From contig JAFXIL010000195.1 in assembly GCA_017563185.1 (NCBI GenBank), positions 16,159 through 80,158 on the forward strand: a stretch of DNA of 64,000 nt. The letters run 5' to 3'. A program made the translations under genes and the position numbers. This document shows positions 4,721 through 63,413 of the stretch, piece after piece; positions within the stretch are counted from its first letter, which is position 1, and every line of letters begins with the position of its first letter. Source of the stretch: Kiritimatiellia bacterium. Its GTDB lineage: Bacteria; Verrucomicrobiota; Kiritimatiellia; RFP12; UBA1067. The notes beneath the pieces are model-generated. The model ran no database searches. It saw nothing but the letters and a program-made list of their open reading frames with translations, and was not told the origin of the DNA.

Positions 4721-7456
4721 ATGAGAGTATATCAGTTCGCCAAGAAGATCGGCGCCACGTGCGCAACGGTCATGAAATGGGCAGAGGAGTGCGAAATCGA
4801 GGTGTACTCGCCGCTCTCGGAGCTTGAAGGCGATGACGCCAATACGCTGAACGCCCGCTTCCTCAAGGAGGGGCCTGCGACTGTCAAGGCCGAGACTGAG
4901 GCCGTTCGCGCACGCGGAAAGGCGAAGGCCGAGAAGGCTGTGAAGGCGCGCGCCGCCAAGGACAAGGCACAGGCTGAGGCCCTTGAGGCCGCACGCAGGC
5001 GCGCCATGGCCGTACACAACGGCGAGCCTTTCGTGATGACTCCGGCCGAGCCGCCGAAGGCGGAAGAAGTCCACGCAGAGAAGCCGGCGAAGGAGCAGAC
5101 GGAGCCGGTTGAGGAGAAGGGGCCGAAGGTTGAGATCGGAGTGTCCCTGCCCGAACTGCCCAAGGTGAGCTTTGAGATGTCGGAGGAGCAGGACACTTCT
5201 GGCGGAGATGATTTCGAGGACGAAGACGACGAGGACGCTCTCGACTATCTGCAGGGCAAGGACCGCGGACGCTCCTCCAAAAAGGACGTCAAGAAGGAGA
5301 AGGATTCCAAGAAGGACGAGGAGAAGGGTGGCTCCAGGCGCGACCGCGAGAGAGGCGAGCGCGACAGGAAGGACGCTCCTGCGAAGAAGGACCGCGATGT
5401 GCGCGCTACGGCAAGAACTGCCGAGCCTGCCGCCGCGCGCCGTTCTGCCGCGCCAGCTGCGCCCGCAGCGCCTGCTGCCAAGCATCCTGCAGCGCCGCAG
5501 CGCCCCGCCTCCACGCGCGTGGGCGGTCATCGCGCGGGCTTCTCTTCCGTGTCCATGAAGCTGTCACGTCCGCAGGTGCAGATCGGCACTGCCAAGCCGG
5601 TGGTCACGGCAGTCGGCGCGCCGACTGCCGCCCCCGCCGCTCCCGCGAAGCCAACGATATCGCTTTCCGTGTCGACCCGCGAGATCTCGATCCGCGGCGC
5701 GGTGGTGGTGAAGGAGCTCGCGCTCAAGCTCGGCATACGCCCGAACAGGCTAATCGCCGATCTCATGGGCCTGAAGATACTCGCCTCCATCAACCAGCGC
5801 GTCGAGCCGGAGGTGGCCATCAAGGTGGCGCAGAAGTACGGCTACAAGGTGAACGTGGAGCACGCGCGCGACGCTGCGAACAAGAAGCCCGTGCTGAAGT
5901 CGATCGACGCAGACGACGAGATCCCGCAGGACAAGCCCGAGGACATGCAGCCGCGTCCTCCGGTGGTCACCTTCCTCGGCCATGTGGACCACGGCAAGAC
6001 GACTCTCATGGACTACATCCGCCACGCGCACGTGGCGGCCGGCGAGGCTGGCGGCATCACGCAGCAGATCTCCGCCTACCAGGTGGACGTGCAGGGCCGC
6101 AAGATCACGTTCCTCGACACGCCCGGCCACGCCGCGTTCAACGCGATGCGCCAGCGCGGCGCGCAGCTCACCGACATCGCAGTGATCATCATCGCGGCAG
6201 ACGACGGCATCATGCCGCAGACCGAGGAGGCTATCAAGTTCGCCCGCCAGGCCGGCGTGCAGATCATGGTGGCCATCACCAAGTGCGACAAGCCCACCGC
6301 CAACACCCAGCGCGTCAAGCAGCAGCTGCAGAAGGCCGGTCTCACCCCCGAAGAGTGGGGTGGCGACATCGTGTGCTGCGAAGTGTCGGGCGTCTCGGGC
6401 CAGGGCGTGGACAACCTTCTCGAGATGATGCTGCTGCAGGCCGACGTGCTCGAGCTTTCCGCCAACCCTCGCCGCCGCGCCAACGGCTACGTGATCGAGG
6501 CCGAGCTCGAACAGGGCTTCGGCCCCTCCGCCACGCTGCTCGTCACCGGCGGCACCCTCAAGGTGGGCGACGCAATCCTCATCGGCGAGCACTTCGGCAA
6601 GGTGCGCTCTCTCATCGACGACCGCGGCCGCCGCATCAAGGAGGCGCCTCCCGCGACGCCCGTGAAGTGCACTGGTCTCTCCGGCGTGCCCGAAGCAGGC
6701 GCGGAGTTCCGTGTGATGCTCGACGAGAAGCGCGCCCGCACGCTCGCCGAGGAGACGGCCCGTCTGCGCAAGGAGCAGGAGCTTTCGCAGACGAAGGCGC
6801 TCTCGCTCGACGACCTCATGAGCCAGATGAACGCCGGCGACAAGCGCGAGCTGAGCGTGGTAGTGAAGAGCGACACGCAGGGCTCACTCGAGGCGATCGT
6901 CGAGGCGCTGCGCGGCATCAAGAGCGAGAAGGTGGGCCTCAAGATCATCGGCACTGGCACGGGCAACGTCTCCATCACCGACGTGAAGAGCGCCGCCGCT
7001 GGCAAGGCCGTGATCGTGGGCTTCGACATCGGCTGCGACTCCGGCGTGCAGCAGCAGGCCCGCCACGACGGCGTGCGAATCAACTCGTTCCGCATCATCT
7101 ACGAGCTGATCGACCATGTGAAGAAGACCATGCTCGACCTTCTGCCGCCAGAGTACACAGAGAAGATCAAGGGCCACGCCCAGGTCAAGGCGATCTACGA
7201 CATCGGCAAACTCGGAAAAATCGCAGGCTCGCAGATGCTCGACGGCTCTCTCGTGGCCTCGGCCCGCTACCGCATCCTCCGCAACGGCGCCAAGGTGTGG
7301 GAAGGCAAGGTGCAGACGCTGCGCCACTTCAAGGACGAGGTCAAGGAGGTCACCGGCCAGCAGGAATGCGGCATCTGCTTTGCGAACTACGAGGGCTTCG
7401 CCGAGGGCGACGTGGTGGAGTGCTATATCCTCGAGGAACTGCCGCGCTCGCTCTAG
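4721..7456 (+). CDS. infB: translation initiation factor IF-2
   Basis: 911 aa. The N-terminus MRVYQFAKKIG… is IF2-like, with a charged low-complexity linker. The GTPase G1 motif is GHVDHGKTTLMDYIR, and DTPGHAAF and NKCD-like (TKCDK) motifs follow. Synteny is nusA-infB-rbfA. Confidence 0.95.
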   Translation: MRVYQFAKKIGATCATVMKWAEECEIEVYSPLSELEGDDANTLNARFLKEGPATVKAETEAVRARGKAKAEKAVKARAAKDKAQAEALEAARRRAMAVHNGEPFVMTPAEPPKAEEVHAEKPAKEQTEPVEEKGPKVEIGVSLPELPKVSFEMSEEQDTSGGDDFEDEDDEDALDYLQGKDRGRSSKKDVKKEKDSKKDEEKGGSRRDRERGERDRKDAPAKKDRDVRATARTAEPAAARRSAAPAAPAAPAAKHPAAPQRPASTRVGGHRAGFSSVSMKLSRPQVQIGTAKPVVTAVGAPTAAPAAPAKPTISLSVSTREISIRGAVVVKELALKLGIRPNRLIADLMGLKILASINQRVEPEVAIKVAQKYGYKVNVEHARDAANKKPVLKSIDADDEIPQDKPEDMQPRPPVVTFLGHVDHGKTTLMDYIRHAHVAAGEAGGITQQISAYQVDVQGRKITFLDTPGHAAFNAMRQRGAQLTDIAVIIIAADDGIMPQTEEAIKFARQAGVQIMVAITKCDKPTANTQRVKQQLQKAGLTPEEWGGDIVCCEVSGVSGQGVDNLLEMMLLQADVLELSANPRRRANGYVIEAELEQGFGPSATLLVTGGTLKVGDAILIGEHFGKVRSLIDDRGRRIKEAPPATPVKCTGLSGVPEAGAEFRVMLDEKRARTLAEETARLRKEQELSQTKALSLDDLMSQMNAGDKRELSVVVKSDTQGSLEAIVEALRGIKSEKVGLKIIGTGTGNVSITDVKSAAAGKAVIVGFDIGCDSGVQQQARHDGVRINSFRIIYELIDHVKKTMLDLLPPEYTEKIKGHAQVKAIYDIGKLGKIAGSQMLDGSLVASARYRILRNGAKVWEGKVQTLRHFKDEVKEVTGQQECGICFANYEGFAEGDVVECYILEELPRSL

Positions 7457-28238: not shown

Positions 28239-28253
28239 GATGAAAGAGAAAAG

Positions 28254-28440
28254 ATGAATAGAGCTGTAGTTGCCTGCTGCGCATTCGCGGCGTGCACGGT
28301 CTTCGCCGATGTCGAGATGATCAACATCGCCCATCGCGGCATGTGGGATAAAGCAGTGCCGCAGAACACAGTGGAGGCCATCAGGCGCGCGTACGAGTCA
28401 GGCGCCACATGGGTGGAGACCGATTTCCACAGCAGCACCT
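28254..28440 (+). pseudogene. N-terminal fragment of a glycerophosphodiester phosphodiesterase (GDPD) gene; rest of domain missing/degenerate
   Basis: The first ~62 codons (signal peptide plus INIAHRGMWDKAVPQNTVEAIRRAYESGATWVETDFH) match the GDPD N-terminus well. After that, no reading frame continues the domain; the ORF-track tail is a Cys/Arg-rich artefact. About 200 bp of non-coding-looking sequence follows. Confidence 0.45.
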
Positions 28441-28648
28441 GTGCCCCGTGCGCTTCCGCAACGTGTGGGTGCGTGTGCGGCAACGGCGCACGAGGTGATG
28501 CCCCACGCGGTCGAGTCCGTTCGAAATCGAGCGCATTATGGTGTTGTGGTAGTTCTGCGCGGTGGGGCCGACGTTGTCGAACTCGTTGCCGTACTTGCCG
28601 AGTGTGATGCCGCTGCATTCGGTGCCGGACTTATTTCAGTCGGATGTT

Positions 28649-29482
28649 TTATCGGTCTGCAAGCGTGGCCATGCGCGCGGAGCGGCCCGCGGCGAGGAGT
28701 TCGCGAAGGGCGGTGCCGTCTTCCGCAGCTATCGCGCGGCGGTATTCGCCAAGGCGGGCGATTAGGCCGTCGAGCGCGTCGAGAAGGGCGGAGCTGTTCT
28801 CTAGGAAGAGGTCGCGCCAGATGTCGGGATCGAGCCGGGCCACTCGCGTCATGTCGTGGAAGCTGCCGGCCGAATATCCGCGGTGCTCGAGGGCGAGGGG
28901 ATCCTGGACGTATGCGGACGACACCACGTGCGCGAGCTGCGAGGTGAGGGCGATCATCCGGTCGTGGTGTTCTGGTGTGGTGACGACCACGCGTCCGAAT
29001 CCAAGCGACTTGAAGAACGTCTCCAGCATGTCGAGCGGGCCGCGTCCGCACGAAGGATACGGCGTGAGTATCATCGATGCGCCATTGAATAGATCGGCGC
29101 TTGCGTTGGCGAAGCCGCTCACCTCCTTGCCGGCCATCGGGTGCCCGCCAACAAATGTCCATCTGCTCTGGAAGGCGAACCTCTCGAGCGCCTTGCAGAC
29201 GGCGCTCTTTACGCCTGTTGCGTCCACCACCACGGCTCCCTGCTTGAAAGTGGCTTCGTGTGCGCATATCCACGGCGCGACGGCGGCGGGCGGCAGCGCC
29301 ACGATCACGACGTCGCACGCGCCGATGTCGTCTTCCAGCACGGCCTGCGCCACGCCTTCTGAAACGGCCGTCTCCGCAGTCGCCCTCGTGCGGTTCCACA
29401 CCTGCACGGCATGGCCGGCCTGCGCGGCTGCCTTGGCGAACGATCCGCCGATCAGCCCCAGCCCTATGATGCCGATATTCAT
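28649..29482 (-). CDS. tyrA: prephenate dehydrogenase
   Basis: The N-terminus MNIGIIGLGLIGGSFAKAA is a Rossmann motif, and HPMAGKE marks the catalytic His region. It is 277 aa. The ORF-track start at 29491 is TTG; the ATG at 29482 is preferred. Confidence 0.8.
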   Translation of the reverse strand: MNIGIIGLGLIGGSFAKAAAQAGHAVQVWNRTRATAETAVSEGVAQAVLEDDIGACDVVIVALPPAAVAPWICAHEATFKQGAVVVDATGVKSAVCKALERFAFQSRWTFVGGHPMAGKEVSGFANASADLFNGASMILTPYPSCGRGPLDMLETFFKSLGFGRVVVTTPEHHDRMIALTSQLAHVVSSAYVQDPLALEHRGYSAGSFHDMTRVARLDPDIWRDLFLENSSALLDALDGLIARLGEYRRAIAAEDGTALRELLAAGRSARMATLADR

Positions 29483-29501
29483 GTGAAGCAATCCTTTTCG
29501 C

Positions 29502-30755
29502 TCACATTGCGGCGGCGAGGGCCGCCGCGAACGCCGAGCAGGAGACTTCGGTGGCGTTCTCCATCAGGCGGGCGAGGTCGTAGGTGACCGTCTTGGCGGA
29601 TATGACGGAGTCCATTGCGGCGATTATGCGGTCGGCGGCCTCCGTCCAGCCCATGTACCTCAGCATCATCTCGCCGGAGAGAATGAGCGAGCCGGGGTTG
29701 ACCTTGTCGAGGTTGGCGTTCTTGGGGGCCGTGCCGTGTGTGGCCTCGTACACCGCGGCGCCTGTATGGTAGTTGATGTTGGCGCCGGGAGCGATGCCGA
29801 TGCCACCCACCGTTGCGGCAAGCGCGTCGGAGACGTAGTCGCCGTTCAGGTTGAGCGTGGCGATCACGTCGTACTCGGCGGGACGCGTGAGGATCTGCTG
29901 CAGAAACGCGTCGCAGATGCAGTCCTTGACAACGATCTCGCGGCCCGTCTTCGGGTTCTTGAACGAGCACCAGGGGCCGTCGCCGATTGGCGCTGCGCCG
30001 TAGTCGCGCTTCGCGAGGGCGTAGCCCCAGTCGCGGAAGGCGCCTTCTGTGAACTTCTGGATGTTGCCCTTGTGGACGAGCGTCACAGACTTGCGGTCGT
30101 TCGCGACCGCATAGTCGATGGCGGCCTTCACGAGGCGCTCAGTGCCTTTCTGCGAGACGGGCTTTACGCCGATGGAGGACGTCTCGGGGAAGCGGATCTT
30201 CTTCACGCCCATCTCGTCGATCAGGAAACGCTTGATCTTGTCCGCCTCGGGCGTGCCGTTCATCCACTCGATGCCGGCGTAGATGTCTTCTGTGTTCTCG
30301 CGGAAGATCACCATGTCGGTGAGCTCGGGATGCTTCACGGGCGAGGGAACGCCCTTGAACCAGCGCACGGGGCGCAGGCACACGTAGAGGTCGAGCTGCT
30401 GGCGCATGGCCACGTTGATCGAGCGGATGCCGCCGCCTATCGGGGTGGTGAGCGGGCCCTTGATCGAGACCAGATACTCGCGGCACGCGTCAAGCGTATC
30501 CTGCGGCGGCCAGGTGTTCGGGCCATAGACTGCATTCGCCTTCTCGCCGGCGTACACCTCCATCCAAGATATGCGGCGGCTCTCGCCGTATGCGGCCTTC
30601 ACGGCGGCGTCCACCGCCGTGCGCATGGCGCGCGTGATGTCCGGGCCGATTCCGTCGCCTTCGATGAAGGGGATGATCGGGTTTGCAGGCACGGCGAGAC
30701 GGCCGTTATGCATGGTGATCTTCTCGCCTTGAGGCACGTTGATTTTGCTGGTCAT
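29502..30755 (-). CDS. icd: NADP-dependent isocitrate dehydrogenase
   Basis: The sequence [40 protein letters not shown] is the near-canonical prokaryotic Icd N-terminus. It is 417 aa. Confidence 0.9.
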
Positions 30756-55551: not shown

Positions 55552-56628
55552 ATGCAGAAGCTCACAGAGATAGCCTGGCCGGAGTTTGAGGCCCTGCCTC
55601 TCGAGGCGAAGAAGCCGTATCTCGAAAACTACGAGATACCGGCCACACCATACCACACCCTCTTTGCGCAGCAGTTCGACAGGCCGCTGCTGGAACGCCT
55701 CGCCGCGCTCGCGAACCGCATACGCTTCATGGCCAAGAGCAAGGAGGGGGCTCTGTACCTGAAGTCGCTGCTGCCGCACAAGCGGGCGATGCTCTACTTC
55801 TCGCAGCCGAGCTCGCGCACGTTCCTCTCGCATCTGGCGGCGTGCCAGATACTGGGGCTCACCACGGGGAGCGTGCGCGATTCGGCCACGTCCTCGGAGT
55901 TCAAGGGAGAGTCGCACGAGGATTCGATACGCACGTTCTCGTCGTACTTCGACATGATCATAATGCGCACGCCGGAGAAGGGCCTAGCCGAGCACATGGC
56001 CTGGGAGCTCTCCAATTCGTCGCGTCCGATTCCGATCATCAACGCCGGCTCCGGCAAGGACCAGCATCCCACGCAGGCGCTTCTCGACGTCTACACGCTC
56101 CTGCGCTCGTTCGAGACGAAGGGCGGCCTCAGGAACCGCACGGTGACATTCTGCGGCGACCTCATGCGCGGGCGCACCGTGCGCTCGCTCAGCTACCTTC
56201 TCACCAACTTCGAGAACATCCGCCAGGTGTTCGTGGCGCCGCCGCAGCTGCAGGTGCCGGAGGACGTGCTGAAGATTCTGCGCGCCAAGGGCGTGGAGTT
56301 CGCCGTGTCGCAGAACCTGCGCGAGGCGGTGACGCTCTCCGACGCGGTGTACATGACGCGCATCCAGGACGAGTGGGACCAGTCGAAGGGCGAGAGCGCG
56401 AAGATCGACACGAGCCACTTCAAGTTCGGCGCGGAGGAGCTGAAGCTGCTTCCCAGGGACGGCATCATCATGCACCCGCTTCCGCGCCGCGACGAGATCG
56501 CCGTCTGCTGCGACCATGATCCCCGCGCCATGTACTGGCGCCAGATGCGCAACGGCATGTGGATACGCTCCGCTCTGATCGCGATGACGTTCGGCTTCGA
56601 GAGACAGATAATGTGCTTTGGAGCGTAG
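55552..56628 (+). CDS. aspartate/ornithine carbamoyltransferase-family protein with atypical carbamoyl-phosphate motif and ~60-aa N-terminal extension
   Basis: The HPxQ motif is HPTQ and the HxLP motif is HPLP. The canonical STRTR is replaced by SQPSSRTF. RBS ggaaaggaagg precedes the ATG at 55552. It is 358 aa. Confidence 0.65.
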   Translation: MQKLTEIAWPEFEALPLEAKKPYLENYEIPATPYHTLFAQQFDRPLLERLAALANRIRFMAKSKEGALYLKSLLPHKRAMLYFSQPSSRTFLSHLAACQILGLTTGSVRDSATSSEFKGESHEDSIRTFSSYFDMIIMRTPEKGLAEHMAWELSNSSRPIPIINAGSGKDQHPTQALLDVYTLLRSFETKGGLRNRTVTFCGDLMRGRTVRSLSYLLTNFENIRQVFVAPPQLQVPEDVLKILRAKGVEFAVSQNLREAVTLSDAVYMTRIQDEWDQSKGESAKIDTSHFKFGAEELKLLPRDGIIMHPLPRRDEIAVCCDHDPRAMYWRQMRNGMWIRSALIAMTFGFERQIMCFGA

Positions 56629-56630
56629 CC

Positions 56631-57485
56631 ATGAGAATCGCGAAAGAGACAAGGGCGCTCGCATGGCAGGCGCTGCGTGCGAAAGACACATACGGCACCT
56701 TCCTCCTGGCGCTGCTGCTGCTGACTGCGGTGCGCGTGCTGGCGGTGCTGCCGTGCATCATGGCCGTAGTGGGGTTCGTGGTGGTCATGGCGGTCATGGC
56801 TGCGAAGGGGAATCCTGGGGGCTGCGGGGAGTCGTTGGACGACGCGATGGCCCTGCTGACAAGCTTGGGCGATAGAATTGGAGACCTTCAGCCCGGCATA
56901 ATCGCCGGCTCTGTGGTCATCTCGGCTGCCGTGGTGGCGGTGTTCTTATACCTGATCGGCTTCGCTACCTGGAGCAAGAACGCAATGGCGATTGCCGCAG
57001 CGCGAGGCGGGATAAGGACGGCCCATGCATTCAGCGGATGGGGAAACGGCTGGCGAATGGCCACGCTCGTCCTGTGGCGCGACACGCTTGTGTTCCTGCA
57101 GCTGCTGCTTTTGATCGTGCCGGGCGTCCGCGCGGCGTTCTCCTATGCGATGGCGCCGTTTCTTCAGATCGACCATCCGGACTGGACGGCGCTCAGATGC
57201 ATCAACGAGTCGAAGCGGCTCATGGAGGGCAACCGCTGGCGGCTCTTCTGCCTTGGCATCAGCTTCATCGGATGGTATCTGCTCGTGGTGCTCGTGAACT
57301 TGGCGATCCAGATCGGCGGCATCGCCCTCTTCGTCCTCGAGCCGTATCCATCTACGGCGACCGCCATCTTCTACGATGAGCTGCTCGACGACGATCCCGG
57401 GCAGCCACGCGCGGATGCCGCTTCTGGCGAAGAGCCCCCGCAGGAATCTGAAGAAACAGAACAAGAAAGGAATCCAGCAGAATGA
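56631..57485 (+). CDS. DUF975-like integral membrane protein
   Basis: It has about 6 TM segments and an acidic C-terminal tail (DDDPGQPRADAASGEEPPQESEETEQ). I assign no function. Confidence 0.55.
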   Translation: MRIAKETRALAWQALRAKDTYGTFLLALLLLTAVRVLAVLPCIMAVVGFVVVMAVMAAKGNPGGCGESLDDAMALLTSLGDRIGDLQPGIIAGSVVISAAVVAVFLYLIGFATWSKNAMAIAAARGGIRTAHAFSGWGNGWRMATLVLWRDTLVFLQLLLLIVPGVRAAFSYAMAPFLQIDHPDWTALRCINESKRLMEGNRWRLFCLGISFIGWYLLVVLVNLAIQIGGIALFVLEPYPSTATAIFYDELLDDDPGQPRADAASGEEPPQESEETEQERNPAE

Positions 57486-58528
57486 AGAACGTCAAATCAC
57501 TCGCAGGCGCGGCGCTCGCCCTCGGCATGATCGCAGGCTGCGGCCCCTCTAAGCCCGAGCTGCACATCTACACGTGGAGCGACTACGTGGACGAGGACGT
57601 GAAGAGCAAGTTCGAGGAGGAGAACAACTGCAAGGTCGTGATCGACACATTCGACTCGAACGAGGCCATGTACGCGAAGCTTCAGGCAGGCTCCACGGGA
57701 TACGACATCATCACCCCCAGCTCCTACCAGATTCCGCTCATGGCGAAGAACAAGATGATCATCCCCCTCGACCACTCGAAGATCCCCAACGTGAAGAAGA
57801 ACTTCGACGCCGCCTTCGCGAACTCCATCCTCGACCCGTCGCTCACCTACAACGCTCCCTACATGGTCACCTACACCGGCATCGCGTATCGCAGGGACAA
57901 GATCGCGAAGGACGTTCCCGTGGACAGCTGGAAGATCTACGAGACTGCAGCCCTCAAGGGGCGCATGTCGCTTCTCTCCGACATGCGCGAGACCATCGGC
58001 GCCGCGCTGAAGTCCCTCGGCTTCTCGCTCAACTCCGAGAAGAAGGAGGAGCTGGACAAGGCCGTTGAGGTGGTGCTCAAGTGGAAGAAGAACATCGCCA
58101 AGTTCGACAACGAGCAGTACAAGACCGCCGTCGCCGCAGGCGAGTGGTTCGTCGGCCATGGGTATTCCTCCGACGTCACGCAGATCATGCTCGAGGACGA
58201 CAAGGTGGGCTTCTCTCTTCCCAAGGAGGGCTTCACGATCGCGTTCGACGAGATGGTGATCGCGGCCGACGCCCCGCAGAAGGAGCTCGCCCACAAGTTC
58301 ATCGACTTCATGTACCGTCCCGAGATGGCCAGGGCCAACATGGAGAGCGTGTGCGCCCCGATGCCCGTCAAGGCGGCGCTTGAGGCGCTCAAGCCCGAGC
58401 TGAAGGCGCTCATCGTGAAGGACGCCGACACGATCAAGCGCGGCGAGGTGCTGCGCGACTTCGACGACAAGCCCGAAGTGCGCAAGATGTACATCGAGGC
58501 CTGGGACAGGATAAAGGCCGGCGAGTGA
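57482..58528 (+). CDS. polyamine (spermidine/putrescine) ABC-transporter substrate-binding lipoprotein, PotD/PotF family (orphan)
   Basis: The signal peptide has a lipobox (LALGMIAGCG). Similarity to the PotD/PotF fold runs throughout (…YTWSDYVDEDV…GYDIITPSSY…). No permease or ATPase genes are adjacent. Confidence 0.75.
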   Translation: MKNVKSLAGAALALGMIAGCGPSKPELHIYTWSDYVDEDVKSKFEEENNCKVVIDTFDSNEAMYAKLQAGSTGYDIITPSSYQIPLMAKNKMIIPLDHSKIPNVKKNFDAAFANSILDPSLTYNAPYMVTYTGIAYRRDKIAKDVPVDSWKIYETAALKGRMSLLSDMRETIGAALKSLGFSLNSEKKEELDKAVEVVLKWKKNIAKFDNEQYKTAVAAGEWFVGHGYSSDVTQIMLEDDKVGFSLPKEGFTIAFDEMVIAADAPQKELAHKFIDFMYRPEMARANMESVCAPMPVKAALEALKPELKALIVKDADTIKRGEVLRDFDDKPEVRKMYIEAWDRIKAGE

Positions 58529-58553
58529 GCCGGCGCGCAAGGAGTCTTTTCGA

Positions 58554-59366
58554 ATGAACAAGCTTCTCCCTTTGCTCGCGCTTGCGCTCTGCGCTGTCTG
58601 CGCCGGCTGCTTCGACAACCGCGGGCGTCCGCCTGACGCGACGCCCGTGACGTCCCTAAAGGCGCTCGCCGCCACGAACCGCGCCGACGTGACGCGCCTC
58701 TACCTGCGCGGCGGCGCGGAGCCGCTCGCGAAGGGCGCCCTCGCCGATCTGCCCAATCTCCGCGAGCTGGACCTCTCGGAGCGGCAGCTGGCCGCCGTGC
58801 CGGAGGAGGTGTTCGCCATGAAGTCGCTCGAACACCTGTATCTCGTGCGCAACGAGTTCAAGGAGCTGCCCGACGCGCTCGCCACGCTGCCCGCGCTCAC
58901 CTACCTGAACCTCGACGGCAACAAGCTCACGGGCGTTCCCGAGTCCCTCGGCGGCGCCGCGAAGCTGAAGTGGCTGCGCCTCAACGAGAACCAGATCGTC
59001 TCGCTGCCCGACTCTCTCGGCAGGCTCGGCGACCTGCGCCGCTTCTACGCCCGCCGCAACAAGCTCAAGGAGGTGCCGGCGTTCTTGAAGTCCTGCACGC
59101 GCCTCGAGGATCTGTCGCTCGACGCCAACTTCATCACCGAGGTGCCCGACTGGCTCGTGAAGCTTCCCGCGCTCAAGAGCGTTTCGTTCAGTGGCTGCCG
59201 CATATCCAAGCTTCCCGCAGACCTTTCCCCGTGGCGTCGCCTCGATTCGCTCGTCCTCTCCGGCTGCCCGATCCACGCCGACGAGATGGCTCGCATCCGA
59301 AAGGAGCTGGGCGACATCGGCGGCACCGAGCAGGTCAACGGCAAAGGCGTGGCGGTGGTGTTCTAG
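58554..59366 (+). CDS. leucine-rich-repeat lipoprotein
   Basis: It has a lipobox (LALCAVCAGC) and about 9 LxxLxLxxNxLxxLP repeats (LRELDLSERQLAAVP, LEHLYLVRNEFKELP, LTYLNLDGNKLTGVP…). Confidence 0.75.
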   Translation: MNKLLPLLALALCAVCAGCFDNRGRPPDATPVTSLKALAATNRADVTRLYLRGGAEPLAKGALADLPNLRELDLSERQLAAVPEEVFAMKSLEHLYLVRNEFKELPDALATLPALTYLNLDGNKLTGVPESLGGAAKLKWLRLNENQIVSLPDSLGRLGDLRRFYARRNKLKEVPAFLKSCTRLEDLSLDANFITEVPDWLVKLPALKSVSFSGCRISKLPADLSPWRRLDSLVLSGCPIHADEMARIRKELGDIGGTEQVNGKGVAVVF

Positions 59367-59369
59367 GCA

Positions 59370-61787
59370 ATGCCCGACTCTAGACTCAAGGATCTCGCGG
59401 AGGCGCCTCTCGGGCGCCTTCTGCTGCGCTATTCGTGGCCTGCCCTCGTCTCGATGACGTTGAACGCGCTCTACACTATCGTGGACCGTGCGTACATCGG
59501 CCATGGCTGCGGACAGGACGCAATGGCCGGCCTCACGCTCGCCTTCCCGGTGATGATGGTGTTTGGCGCGTTCGGCGTGTTCGTTGGCGCGGGCCACTCG
59601 GCGCTCATCTCCCTCAAGCTCGGCGCGGGCGACCGCCCGGCCTGCGACAAGATACTCGGCGAGCTTGTGGCGTTCAAGCTTGCGTTCTTCTTCGTGCTGC
59701 CGCCGCTTGTGTTCGCGTTTCTCGACCCCATTCTGCGTGCGACGGGAGGATCCGGCGTGACGCCGGGCGCCCTAGAGCAGGCGAAGACGTATCTGCGCCT
59801 CGTTCTCTTCTCGCATCTCTTCTCGCATCTCGCCTTCGGCCTCTCTGCAGCGATGCGCAGCGAAGGCGGCGTGCTGCCATCCATGATGTGCATGGTGGTG
59901 GGTTTCGGCACGAACCTCGTGCTCGACCCATTGTTCATCTTCGCATTCAAGATGGGCGTGACCGGTGCCGCCTGGGCCACCAACATCGCGATGTTCCTCT
60001 CGTGCCTCTGCGCGCTGTGGTACTACAGGCCAGGACACAGCGTGGTGCGCCTTCGCCTTGGATGCGTGCGGTTCTACCGCGAGTACGCGCGGCGGGCGGC
60101 GGGCATCGGCCTCTCGCCTGCCCTGCAGCAGCTGATGGGCAGCCTGATAACGGTCTCGATGCAGATGGCGTTCGCGAAGTGGGCGACAAGCCGCGAGGCG
60201 GCCACTGCGCAGATCGCGTCGCTCGGCATCTTCCAGATGTCGGTCATGTTCTTCTTCATGCCGGTGATGGGCGTGCAGCAGGGGCTTGCGCCGATAATGG
60301 GCTTCAACTGGGGCGCGCGCAGCTACGGCAGAGTGCGCGACGCGCTGATCCTCGGCTTCTGGATAACGACGGCGTGCGTGGCCTTTGCCTCGGCCGCGAG
60401 CGTCCTTGCCCCGGGGGTGATAGCGCGCGTGTTCACCGACGGCAAGGACGTCGGCTTTCTGCGTCTTGTCGCGGGCGACCTGCGCCTCGCAAACTGCATG
60501 TTCTGGTGCATCGGCCTCAACGTTGTGGCGACCACCTACTTCCAGTCCATCGGCCATCCATGGACGGCCATAGTCCTTTCGATGATGCGCCAGTGCCTCT
60601 GCCTCCTGCCGTGCATCTGGCTGCTCCCGTATCTCTTCTCCGACCACATGTTCGCCATCTGGGTGTCTCATCCGATCTCAGACGTTCTCGCCTTCTTCTT
60701 CACAATCCCGCCGTTCTTCTCGCACGCGCGCTTCCTGCGCCGCGCATCGAGCATTTCGGCCTCTCGTTCGCGCGAGAGCGTGCGTGTGGAGCGCGCTCCC
60801 CTGCGCAAGCGCATCGCGCCGTGGCTTTCGTTCTTTCGCCTTCCGAACCTGCCTACCGCCCCGGGCGACGCTCTGGCGGGGGCGGCGTTCCTTGCCGCCG
60901 CCTTCCCCGAAATCATCCGCGGTTGCGCGCCCCGCGCGCTCGCGGCGGCGGCGGCCGCGCTTTTTCTCTACATGTTCGGCCTTGCGGACAACGATGTGGT
61001 CGGTGCGCCTGAAGACGCGCAGCGCTCACCGCACCGTCCCATCCCGTCCGGGGCGATATCCATGCGCGCCGCGAAGAGCGCCCGCGCAATCTGCCTTGCC
61101 CTTGCCGCAGTCACTGGCGCCTGCGCGTCGCTGCCTTTGGTCTGGTGGGCGATTGCTCTTCTGCTTGGTGGCGCGATATTGCTTTACAACCGCGTGAAGG
61201 GCTCTTTGCTGATGGGCGCGTGCAGGGGCATCAGCATGATCGCGGGCGGCGCGGCACTATACGTGCCCGGGCTTGCGCGCCGTTCGACGATCATGCATCC
61301 AGGCGATCCGGGCGTGATGTTCTTCGCCGCGTGCGCGGCGCTGATCCTCGCGGCAGGGGGGTGGATGCTCTACATAGCGGCGGTGACGAAGCTCTCTGAA
61401 GGCGAGGAGACCGAGAGCGAGGGGCTGGGCAACCGGCGCTATCTGCTGGGGCTTGCCTCATTTGCGCCGCTTGCCGCGTTCGTGCCGGTTCTCGCATGCC
61501 GCATGAACCTGCCTGATCCGCGCGTCACGTTCACGTTCCTGATGCTGCCCGTTCTGGGCTGCCTCTGGACGTTCATCACATGGTGTTCGGCTGTGTCGCC
61601 GCTCTGGTGCGCGCATGGTCCGGCCGAGCGCCGCGCCGCCGTTGGACGCACCATAGGCGCGCTTCTCTACCTGCAGCTCGGCTTCGTGCTAGTGGCGCCC
61701 GAGCCTGCATTTCTCGCCGCGGCCGCGGTGCTTTGGGGCGCCTCGCGCACCATCCGCCGCTTCGCGCCGGGCATCAGCGGATCGTGA
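59370..61787 (+). CDS. fusion ORF: MATE/MOP-family efflux/flippase domain (aa 1-~470) + UbiA-family prenyltransferase-like membrane domain (aa ~480-805)
   Basis: The N-terminal half has 12 TM segments and is MATE-like (LLRYSWPALVSMTLNALYTIVDRAYIGHG…). The C-terminal half carries the UbiA signature region (ADNDVVGAPEDAQRSPHRPIPSGAIS) plus 7-8 TM segments. It is one continuous frame in this assembly. Confidence 0.65.
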   Translation: MPDSRLKDLAEAPLGRLLLRYSWPALVSMTLNALYTIVDRAYIGHGCGQDAMAGLTLAFPVMMVFGAFGVFVGAGHSALISLKLGAGDRPACDKILGELVAFKLAFFFVLPPLVFAFLDPILRATGGSGVTPGALEQAKTYLRLVLFSHLFSHLAFGLSAAMRSEGGVLPSMMCMVVGFGTNLVLDPLFIFAFKMGVTGAAWATNIAMFLSCLCALWYYRPGHSVVRLRLGCVRFYREYARRAAGIGLSPALQQLMGSLITVSMQMAFAKWATSREAATAQIASLGIFQMSVMFFFMPVMGVQQGLAPIMGFNWGARSYGRVRDALILGFWITTACVAFASAASVLAPGVIARVFTDGKDVGFLRLVAGDLRLANCMFWCIGLNVVATTYFQSIGHPWTAIVLSMMRQCLCLLPCIWLLPYLFSDHMFAIWVSHPISDVLAFFFTIPPFFSHARFLRRASSISASRSRESVRVERAPLRKRIAPWLSFFRLPNLPTAPGDALAGAAFLAAAFPEIIRGCAPRALAAAAAALFLYMFGLADNDVVGAPEDAQRSPHRPIPSGAISMRAAKSARAICLALAAVTGACASLPLVWWAIALLLGGAILLYNRVKGSLLMGACRGISMIAGGAALYVPGLARRSTIMHPGDPGVMFFAACAALILAAGGWMLYIAAVTKLSEGEETESEGLGNRRYLLGLASFAPLAAFVPVLACRMNLPDPRVTFTFLMLPVLGCLWTFITWCSAVSPLWCAHGPAERRAAVGRTIGALLYLQLGFVLVAPEPAFLAAAAVLWGASRTIRRFAPGISGS

Positions 61788-61792
61788 ATGCA

Positions 61793-62785
61793 ATGAAACA
61801 GATGGCCACAGATGCGCGCAAGCCCCTGAGAATGCCGGAGGGGAGCTGTTTGGGATGGCTGGCCGCCGCGTTCTCCATCGTCGTGTGGAGCATCACCTAC
61901 GCGAGCACGCGCGTGCTGCTGCGCGACTTCTCTTCGCTCGAAATACAGATCGTGCGCTTCACGCTCGCCTGGGCGGCGCTGGCGCTCTTAGGGGCGGCTT
62001 CTCGGCGGACGTCGTCGCCGCGCGGAGCTGGCAACGAGCCTCTTTTCGCGGCCATGGGCTTCACGGGGATTGCGGCCTACCAGTTCCTGGAGAACTGCGC
62101 GATATACTACACGAACGCGAGCAACGTGGCGATACTCGTTGCCTTCGCGCCGATAATGACGGCCGTGGTGACGAGGATGTTCGTGAAGGACAAGTCGATG
62201 TCGGCGTCGTTCGTGGCGGGGTCGCTGGTGGCGGTCGGCGGCGTGGCGGTGGTGAGCCTGGGCGCGGGGGCCGAGCTTGAGCTGCGTCCTGTGGGCGACC
62301 TGATGGCGATTGGCGCAATGGCGTCGTGGGGGGGCTACTCGATGCTGGTCGATGTGGCGAACAGGCGGGGAGTGCCGCCGGCATTGGCTATGCGCAGGGC
62401 GTTCGTGTGGTCGCTTCTGATGATGGCGCCGCTCGTCGCATGGGGGGCCACCGAGGCGGGCGCAAGGGCGGTGGACGGCGTGTTCGCGGTGACGTTCGAC
62501 TACGCGCGCAACGCGGAACGCTTCTCGAGGGCGGCGAACTGGGTGAACTTCGGATTCCTTGGCGTGTTTGCGTCCGCAGCGAGCTTCGCGCTCTGGAACT
62601 ACGCCTGCCGGTCGCTCGGCGTGGTGCGGGCGTCTGTCGGGCTCTATCTCACGCCGGTCATAGGAGTCGCGTTTGCCGTGGCGTTTCTAGGCGAGGCGCT
62701 CACGGCGTCGGGCGTGTGCGGCGGCGCGCTCATCCTCGCCGGCGTGTACGTGGCAAGCAGGACAAGGCAGAAGGAGAGGCAATGA
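61793..62785 (+). CDS. EamA/DMT-family transporter
   Basis: It has 10 TM segments in two EamA repeats. The ATG at 61793 comes 5 nt after the upstream stop. Confidence 0.75.
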   Translation: MKQMATDARKPLRMPEGSCLGWLAAAFSIVVWSITYASTRVLLRDFSSLEIQIVRFTLAWAALALLGAASRRTSSPRGAGNEPLFAAMGFTGIAAYQFLENCAIYYTNASNVAILVAFAPIMTAVVTRMFVKDKSMSASFVAGSLVAVGGVAVVSLGAGAELELRPVGDLMAIGAMASWGGYSMLVDVANRRGVPPALAMRRAFVWSLLMMAPLVAWGATEAGARAVDGVFAVTFDYARNAERFSRAANWVNFGFLGVFASAASFALWNYACRSLGVVRASVGLYLTPVIGVAFAVAFLGEALTASGVCGGALILAGVYVASRTRQKERQ

Positions 62786-63165
62786 CGACTAGACTGACAA
62801 AAGACGGACGCAAGGTCCCCGGCGTAGTCCTGTTCGCAGTGGTCGTGGCGCTTGCGGCGATCGGCAAGGGCCGCTTGTGGTGCAACTGGGTGTGCCCTGC
62901 CGGAGCTATAGAGGTGATTCCGCGCCTTGAGCGCAAGAACGCACATGGGGCACGCGATCTGGAAGAAGGACCATTGCATACGCATTTCGGATGGAGTGTC
63001 GTGCACGGCATGCGCCCGGAAGTGTCCGGTGAAGGCGATCCACATCGTCGAGGGCTTTCCCGTGGTGGACAAGGGCGCCTGCATCGGATGCGGCGCATGC
63101 GCCACGCCGCAAGCGCGGCCGCGTTGCGCACTCCTTTCTCGCGCGCGAGGCCGTCGCCCTGTTGA
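62782..63165 (+). pseudogene. 4Fe-4S ferredoxin-like membrane protein, apparently frameshifted
   Basis: Frame A (from the ATG at 62782, overlapping the EamA stop) encodes a TM region plus RLWCNWVCPAGA (the Fer4_5-type motif), then degenerates. Frame B (+1, open from 62918) encodes a ferredoxin cluster domain: CTACARKCPVKAIHIVEGFPVVDKGACIGCGACA. One gene appears split by a frameshift near 62915-62930. Confidence 0.4.
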
Positions 63166-63393
63166 TAACTTTTCCATCAGTGCAACGGGATGCCAGCCTG
63201 TTGGGTTGTTCGCCGCTCGAACCACGAGCCACGAATCGCGAACCACTGTCTTTCATCTTCCTGTCCTCCGCCCGCGCGGCCAGAATGGCTTCGGCGGAGA
63301 ACGGCCCCCGCCTCGCGCAGACGGGAACAGTGTCTCATTGGTTTGGCTGTCAAATGAAATTCACACGTCAGATTCCCCAGGACAAACGAAAAA

Positions 63394-63413
63394 CCCCCTG
63401 TAGATACAGGGGG
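63394..63413 (-). terminator. rho-independent terminator (8-bp GC stem CCCCCTGT/ACAGGGGG, 4-nt loop, U-tract on minus strand)
   Basis: The plus strand reads aaaaaCCCCCTGTagatACAGGGGGttgg. On the minus strand the hairpin is followed by TTTTTCGTTTG. It lies about 120 nt downstream of the minus-strand ORF ending at 63535. Confidence 0.6.

Follow-up and report, generated by a model that had tools for sequence, protein, structure and literature searches.

A single open reading frame (ORF) in a 64,000-nucleotide (nt) stretch of the genome of a Kiritimatiellia bacterium (GenBank assembly GCA_017563185.1, contig JAFXIL010000195.1, positions 16,159 to 80,158 of the forward strand; hereafter, the window) was found to encode a genuine covalent fusion of a MATE transporter and a UbiA-superfamily domain. 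The ORF is uninterrupted from ATG to stop at 59370..61787(+) and specifies 805 amino acids (aa), exactly at the coordinates given in a preliminary description of this DNA, and profile searches matched both of the halves named there. Both parts come from known superfamilies. The combination had been described as one not known from earlier work, and no paper describing a MATE-UbiA fusion was found in a literature search that did not extend to domain-architecture databases. We favour, as rather probable, the view that the product is one polypeptide whose two membrane modules work independently, and that the fusion became fixed once a UbiA-like coding sequence (CDS) had been relocated by chance.

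The reading frame was kept open on four other contigs from different samples. Their nucleotide identity spanned 82–96%. These were a metagenome-assembled genome (MAG) of the same species (L009; 96% identity), L002 (90%), Kiritimatiellae RGIG4394 from a roe-deer omasum (L010; 86%) and L003 (84%), the last of which has 806 codons and a one-codon in-frame indel within the linker between the two domains. As the frame has come through both this divergence and the linker indel intact, we conclude that it is translated. In pairwise comparisons at dS 0.48–0.88, dN/dS was 0.09–0.10 for the MATE half, 0.14–0.15 for the UbiA-like half and 0.25–0.30 for the linker, and both halves are under purifying selection. 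A missed stop or frameshift around 60750–60800, against which the preliminary description had cautioned, was looked for and no artefact was seen, all five contigs sharing the open frame. Sequencing or assembly error was ruled out by the retention of the frame on these contigs together with the selection on both halves. Merger of two adjacent genes was also rejected: the gene next to MATE in the unfused relative L001 is unrelated, and the UbiA-like CDS came from a distant site.

The two halves could be traced to separate places in related genomes. L001 carries the same upstream genes (OTCase-like, DUF975, LRR protein and MATE), and its nucleotide homology to the window stops at 60745, where the MATE domain ends. 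In a sister lineage, at locus L004, the nearest stand-alone relative of the UbiA-like half (P0121; 70% identity) lies tail to tail with a prephenate-dehydrogenase-like gene, which is followed by an isocitrate/isopropylmalate-dehydrogenase-like gene. Positions 7055–8030 of L004, corresponding to the UbiA-like CDS from approximately codon 3 to the stop, matched window positions 60812–61787 with 69.6% nucleotide identity, and the two dehydrogenase genes (L004 8032–10108) matched window positions 28664–30755 with 81% identity. Since the window keeps these old neighbours without a UbiA-like gene beside them, the CDS has been relocated and now lies ~32 kb away, in frame behind MATE. On these alignments, the fusion is the product of a single recent relocation. 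A neighbour-joining tree and the dS values hinted that the unfused L001 nests within the fusion clade, which would imply a later loss; in a quartet bootstrap the fusions were monophyletic in 59% of replicates and L001 was nested in 33%, leaving secondary loss in L001 unsupported. Beside the prephenate-dehydrogenase-like gene at the empty site, a short ORF fragment was seen at ~28240–28660. By eye it was similar to the N-terminal part of glycerophosphodiester phosphodiesterases, and it may have been left behind by the rearrangement.

The fusion was rare among relatives of either half. Among the top 120 whole-protein matches, only P0001–P0003 were fused; the others, down to 58% identity, were stand-alone MATE proteins of ~470 aa, except for two with unrelated C-terminal extensions. 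These two orthologues, P0029 (1009 aa) and P0115 (975 aa), were each seen on one contig and may be gene-call or assembly artefacts; the extension of P0029 had no Pfam match and that of P0115 contained GH43-type domains. The family of the C-terminal half is populous and consists of stand-alone proteins of 295–345 aa that are 45–70% identical, and a search of its profile against 1.84 billion representatives returned no protein of ≥ 700 aa among the best 150. A search with the C-terminal half alone omitted P0001–P0003 despite 78–96% identity in that region, an apparent quirk of the search tool, such that absence from that list does not prove absence. In a scan of species-representative genomes we recovered 42 UbiA-like loci, of which only L009 and L010 were fused; almost all belonged to Kiritimatiellia MAGs of gut or rumen origin, some of them carrying a Lentisphaerae or Verrucomicrobia label. 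With one fragmentary exception, each genome had one UbiA-like locus, the fusion-bearing MAGs included. On the sequences sampled, the fusion is young and does not extend beyond a single small clade of gut/rumen Kiritimatiellia.

The N-terminal half matched Pfam MatE (PF01554) in two stretches (E 3.5e-34, 118.3 bits; cutoff 24.9). NCBIfam MATE efflux models covered residues 16–446 and were the only NCBIfam matches of this half, with TIGR00797 at 142.6 bits, marginally under its cutoff of 147.4. DinF-BH (PDB 4LZ6/5C6O) aligned end to end (E 1e-61, residues 12–450 against 13–439), PfMATE (3VVN) was next, and >100 stand-alone ~470-aa MATE proteins of Kiritimatiellia relatives were orthologous. The proposal that residues 1–~470 form a MATE-like transporter was borne out by these matches. 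An accompanying analogy to the MOP-superfamily flippases Wzx and MurJ was not, as Pfam at E ≤ 1 gave MatE and UbiA only, with no match to the MurJ or Wzx/Polysacc_synt families. By these criteria the N-terminal half is a complete DinF-type MATE pump, not a MurJ/Wzx-type flippase. It shares with DinF-type exporters the two MatE repeats and the full-length alignment, and differs from them in that a UbiA-like membrane domain of ~325 residues is added after the cytoplasmic tail.

Assignment of the C-terminal half to the UbiA superfamily rested on profile and structural comparisons. Pfam UbiA (PF01040) matched the whole protein with E 1.2e-5 (25.1 bits) and the C-terminal half alone with E 1.3e-7 (31.6 bits), against a gathering score of 34.2, and a precomputed PF01040 match was present in many stand-alone members of the UbiA-like family. 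The NCBIfam SCO3242-family model NF045897 aligned to the C-terminal half almost end to end (3.5e-23, 82.6 bits; cutoff 260), followed by the EboC model NF035940 (4e-19, 69.1 bits; cutoff 250), with generic prenyltransferase models scoring far behind; other members of the family reached 54–81 bits on the EboC/SCO3242 models. An AlphaFold2 model of the C-terminal half, built on a 57-sequence family alignment, had a pLDDT of 96.1 and a pTM of 0.93 and contained ~9–10 helices of membrane-spanning length. Thus, the UbiA-superfamily fold proposed in the preliminary description was supported, and its count of 7–8 transmembrane (TM) helices was slightly low. The top 15 Foldseek matches in the PDB all belonged to the UbiA superfamily, with TM-scores of only ~0.4–0.5, and the best of them, at a probability of 1.00, were DGGGP synthase (7BPU/6M31), ApUbiA, AfUbiA, the membrane PRTase 8J8J and UBIAD1. 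DGGGP synthase was the closest solved structure (profile E 1.1e-10, over the N-terminal half of the UbiA-like domain; Foldseek E 4e-5). The window domain has in common with DGGGP synthase, ApUbiA and AfUbiA the multi-helix UbiA architecture and the N-D...D...RP.PSG region; it differs from the archaeal UbiA enzymes in its modest structural likeness (TM-score ~0.5), an identity of 14–19%, a second half without detectable sequence similarity and altered acidic motifs.

The UbiA hallmark peptide DNDVVGAPEDAQRSPHRPIPSG was located at 60987–61052. It lacks a strict NDxxDxxxD motif and reads N541-D542-x-x-G545-x-x-x-D549, with the N and the two outer Asp residues conserved; in the profile alignment Gly545 faces the second Asp of the NDxxDxxxD motif of DGGGP synthase. 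Across the UbiA-like family, position 545 was G in 48/57 members and D in 8/57, and D540, N541, D542, D549, R556, Y606, N607, K610, E677, E679 and E680 were invariant or nearly so. DxxxD was also absent, and a Glu-rich S-E-G-E-E stands at the end of predicted TM helix 6, where UbiA enzymes have the second Asp-rich motif. Because the altered motif is conserved throughout the family, we regard it as a family signature and not as decay of the fused copy.

The domains are joined by a basic linker. In residues 447–500 we counted 11 K/R against 3 D/E; this charge count was the only result taken from a hydropathy scan that was too noisy for counting TM helices. In length and composition, the linker matches the short basic tail that follows 'HxRFLxRA' in every unfused MATE orthologue. 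In-frame GTG codons occur in the window linker at 60780 and 60786, and an in-frame ATG occurs in that of L003.

These features bear on two improbable alternatives, one concerning the chemistry of the UbiA-like half and the other the number of products made from the frame. The preliminary description had suggested that the partly degenerate Asp-rich motif might make this half non-catalytic, in which case it would serve as a structural or regulatory membrane module. Consistent with that idea, strict NDxxDxxxD and DxxxD are both absent, the Pfam UbiA score falls under the gathering threshold and the likeness to solved enzyme folds is modest. Nevertheless, Gly at position 545 is the family norm, and the altered motifs are conserved in the entire stand-alone family with near-invariant residues around them, which is the pattern of an active site and not of decay. 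Moreover, the half evolves at a dN/dS of ~0.14–0.15, and some members retain the canonical Asp at position 545. Glu, like Asp, is able to act as an Mg2+ ligand. We therefore consider a non-catalytic role improbable and infer that the C-terminal half is an active but divergent transferase. By the other alternative, which we hold to be about as improbable, initiation within the linker would yield a stand-alone UbiA-like protein beside the MATE or full-length product. The window start codons lie 9–11 codons 5' of the conserved 'IAPWL' N-terminus, comparable codons are found in L002 and L003, the linker start codons are directly preceded by a run of purines (GAGAG/GAGG), and stand-alone homologues begin 3–4 residues ahead of 'PWL'. 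Yet the five contigs differ in both the type and the position of the start codon, the run of purines is a weak one, the linker is in frame with a dN/dS that points to its translation as part of a protein, and a separate product would not require loss of the MATE stop codon. We infer that one full-length protein is made and that both activities persist in it, independently of each other.

We examined the surroundings of the wider family by scoring 39 stand-alone loci for the immediate upstream gene on the same strand. Neighbours were called by ORF clustering, as GC content at third codon positions did not predict genes reliably where these encoded membrane proteins or where the locus was low in GC. 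A MATE gene was immediately upstream at 0/39 loci. A TatD-family hydrolase was found at 11/39 (gaps of 6–38 nt), all in more distant members, and a MacB/FtsX ABC permease at 7/39, mostly in the closest stand-alone relatives. A GFO/IDH/MocA oxidoreductase (5 loci), an SSF symporter (3) and an ABC ATPase (2) followed, along with the singletons DprA, IlvC, PriA and a Na/H exchanger. In L011–L016 (e.g. L011 7559–10975), the UbiA-like gene starts 0–60 nt after, or slightly overlaps, a MacB/FtsX permease of ~800 aa, and an ABC ATPase gene is present farther upstream in L014 and L015. A PF01663 phosphodiesterase was directly downstream in L035 (in the order TatD, UbiA-like, PF01663) and in L053–L055. 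In L019 it was two genes downstream, and clustering apparently puts it downstream in L024 and L026 too.

Parts of this gene order recall the ebo cluster, in which EboB is TatD-like, EboC is UbiA-like and EboF belongs to PF01663 (PMC5133447; bioRxiv 10.64898/2026.05.21.724671). EboC is reported to farnesylate hydroxyquinolines in thallusin biosynthesis, and some phyla are reported to have the ebo core genes dispersed over the genome, a planctomycete being one example (bioRxiv 10.64898/2026.05.21.724671). The EboC/SCO3242 models were the best-scoring curated models for the window domain, and distant members of its family are translationally coupled to TatD (as EboB) and/or PF01663 (as EboF). On the other hand, the family scores 54–83 bits against cutoffs of 250–260, which places the domain outside both the EboC and the SCO3242 family, and has Gly in the first motif and a Glu-rich second motif. 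No neighbour gene of the UbiA-like family matched an Ebo-specific NCBIfam model, which speaks against membership of a full ebo cluster. No EboE-like (xylose-isomerase-like) gene was recognised among the annotated neighbours, and the 64-kb window contained no TatD or PF01663 gene. In view of the sub-cutoff scores, the lack of Ebo-model matches among neighbours and the lack of TatD and PF01663 in the window, we call the domain EboC-like and not EboC. The tight TatD-UbiA-like pair occurred in L034–L037, L039, L041–L045 and L048, which are low-GC MAGs labelled Kiritimatiellia or Lentisphaerae; L035 7529–10710 resembles a minimal EboB-EboC-EboF unit, at scores under all Ebo model cutoffs.

The N-terminus of the UbiA-like domain was fused to other partners elsewhere in the family. 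HPPK (FolK) was N-terminal in two divergent members, P0241 (L051 569–1948) and P0274 (L052 2609–4006), and RdgB/Ham1 was fused to the UbiA-like domain in P0279, encoded on at least 3 contigs (L053 2154–3503, L054 132–1481 and L055 712–2061). The operon of the Ham1 fusion is conserved, with the PF01663 phosphodiesterase (stop/start overlap) followed by two uncharacterised proteins of 261 and 331 aa; in L053, NagA is upstream and an O-methyltransferase-type gene is also present. The HPPK fusion was considered as a clue to a pterin-diphosphate donor and set aside, as no HPPK or Ham1 gene lies near the family at the loci examined for this and the Ham1 part is an ordinary RdgB. Since the partners are unrelated housekeeping enzymes that do not recur as neighbours, the N-terminus appears to fuse easily to whatever gene is upstream, and we treated the HPPK and RdgB fusions as presumably opportunistic. 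A 'Rosetta-stone' fusion of IspH and UbiA is also on record, and >400 double-size IspH proteins, IspH-RPS1 fusions included, have been reported (PMC4746011). There, too, a UbiA-superfamily domain is fused via its N-terminus, but to a soluble enzyme of the isoprenoid pathway, so that the metabolic link is obvious, and the distribution is wide; the partner in the window is a 12-TM exporter in a tiny clade with no evident metabolic link.

Overall, comparison with relatives suggests that the window fusion arose opportunistically. In the sequence of events that we favour, a rearrangement moved a normally stand-alone, apparently single-copy EboC-like CDS from its site beside the prephenate and isocitrate/isopropylmalate dehydrogenase genes to a position directly behind a housekeeping DinF-type MATE gene, such that the short basic cytoplasmic tail of MATE now continues directly into approximately codon 3 of the UbiA-like CDS. 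The C-terminus of 12-TM MATE proteins is cytoplasmic, and the cytosolic nature of the HPPK and RdgB partners indicates that the N-terminus of the UbiA-like domain is on the cytoplasmic side as well; one polypeptide can therefore hold both domains in their native orientation. The N-terminal half would most probably carry out cation-coupled efflux of small molecules, and the C-terminal half, by analogy with EboC, would most probably depend on Mg2+ and transfer a prenyl group, or another group activated as a diphosphate, to an acceptor within the membrane. Several points weigh against two independent modules in a single product. The single-copy count comes from incomplete MAGs and a scan with two peptide patterns, and the internal GTG and ATG codons leave room for a separately made UbiA-like half. 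The retention of the fusion over a dS of ~0.9, as the apparent sole copy, could equally reflect selected functional coupling. In a model of the full-length protein (A5 alignment) the MATE half had a pLDDT < 50, and the model is uninformative on domain packing and contacts because only four sequences cover that half.

Functional coupling, as had been put forward in the preliminary description, would mean that the attached MATE exports or flips a prenylated or lipid-linked product made in the membrane by the UbiA-like half, in the manner of a 'Rosetta stone'. This would fit the purifying selection on the fusion in five sampled lineages, seemingly as the sole copy, as well as the transporter genes found upstream elsewhere (MacB/FtsX at 7 loci, SSF at 3, ABC ATPase at 2 and Na/H exchanger at 1) and the EamA transporter gene that follows the fusion in the window. 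However, those transporter neighbours represent few independent events and were counted without a statistical control, EamA is a variable insertion, and none of the 39 other loci has a MATE neighbour. The MATE half is a plain orthologue of stand-alone DinF-type pumps, not of MurJ or Wzx, and the partners of the family differ by lineage, with the further fusions to HPPK and RdgB arguing for opportunistic events. For these reasons we regard coupling as unlikely. A more specific version, in which the EboC-like enzyme makes a membrane-embedded prenylated compound and hands it directly to the MATE exporter, is more doubtful still. Two independently working modules thus remain the reading that we prefer.

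The features of the window are collected in Table 1. Only 3 nt separate the end of the LRR gene from the ATG of the fusion, and the tightly spaced upstream genes on this strand probably form one operon with it. L002 repeats the upstream gene order, as does L001 except that the binding-protein gene is missing there. EamA sits precisely between the stop of the fusion and the gene after it; it is present in the window and L009 and absent in L002 and L010, and the 39 nt that follow the fusion stop in L002/L010 recur at window 62779–62817, directly after EamA. Farther downstream, the window at ~62786–63400 lacks ~2.1 kb carried by the same-species L009 (L009 12008–14378), where an aldo-keto-reductase/4Fe-4S gene and a portion of a Fer4_5 gene are found; the ferredoxin-like fragments left in the window are in two different frames and are probably a pseudogene.

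Table 1. Coordinates of the MATE-UbiA fusion, its parts and associated sites in the window.
Feature	Coordinates	Strand	Basis or remark
Whole fused ORF	59370..61787	+	805 codons and stop; frame equally open in L009, L002, L010 and L003
MATE exporter half of the DinF subfamily, residues 1-459, with 'FFSHARFLRRA' as its conserved end	59370..60746	+	Pfam, DinF-BH alignment, end of L001 homology
Basic Ser/Arg-rich linker, 22 residues, S460-R481	60747..60812	+	Similar to the cytoplasmic tail with which unfused MATE orthologues end
Predicted EboC/SCO3242-like UbiA-superfamily domain, residues 482-805	60813..61784	+	NCBIfam, AlphaFold2, Foldseek, L004 homology
First acidic motif region, D540-N-D-V-V-G545-A-P-E-D549...R556-P...G561	60987..61052	+	Gly replaces the second Asp of NDxxDxxxD
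Conserved YNRxK block (Y606, N607, K610)	61185..61199	+	Family alignment
Second acidic motif, S-E677-G-E679-E680-x-x-S-E-G	61395..61424	+	End of predicted TM helix 6
DUF975, solute-binding protein and LRR genes, tightly spaced upstream	56559..59366	+	LRR end 3 nt before the fusion ATG
EamA/DMT transporter gene	61793..62785	+	Begins 5 nt after the fusion stop
'Empty site': prephenate-dehydrogenase-like and isocitrate/isopropylmalate-dehydrogenase-like genes, no UbiA-like gene adjoining	28664..30755	-	L004 homology

On the favoured reading, the birth of a two-domain membrane protein can be read from sequence, with the donor site, the acceptor site, the origin of the linker and the selection that followed. 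The results also draw attention to an uncharacterised EboC-like UbiA family that has unusual conserved motifs and nearly all of whose members came here from gut/rumen Kiritimatiellia and related MAGs. If the two halves do cooperate, the fusion would offer a testable handle on the products of ebo-type prenyltransferases and their exit from the cell. A direct hand-over between them, if true, would for the first time tie ebo-type prenyltransferases physically to a defined export system, and would be relevant to the proposal that ebo genes help to move metabolites into the periplasm.

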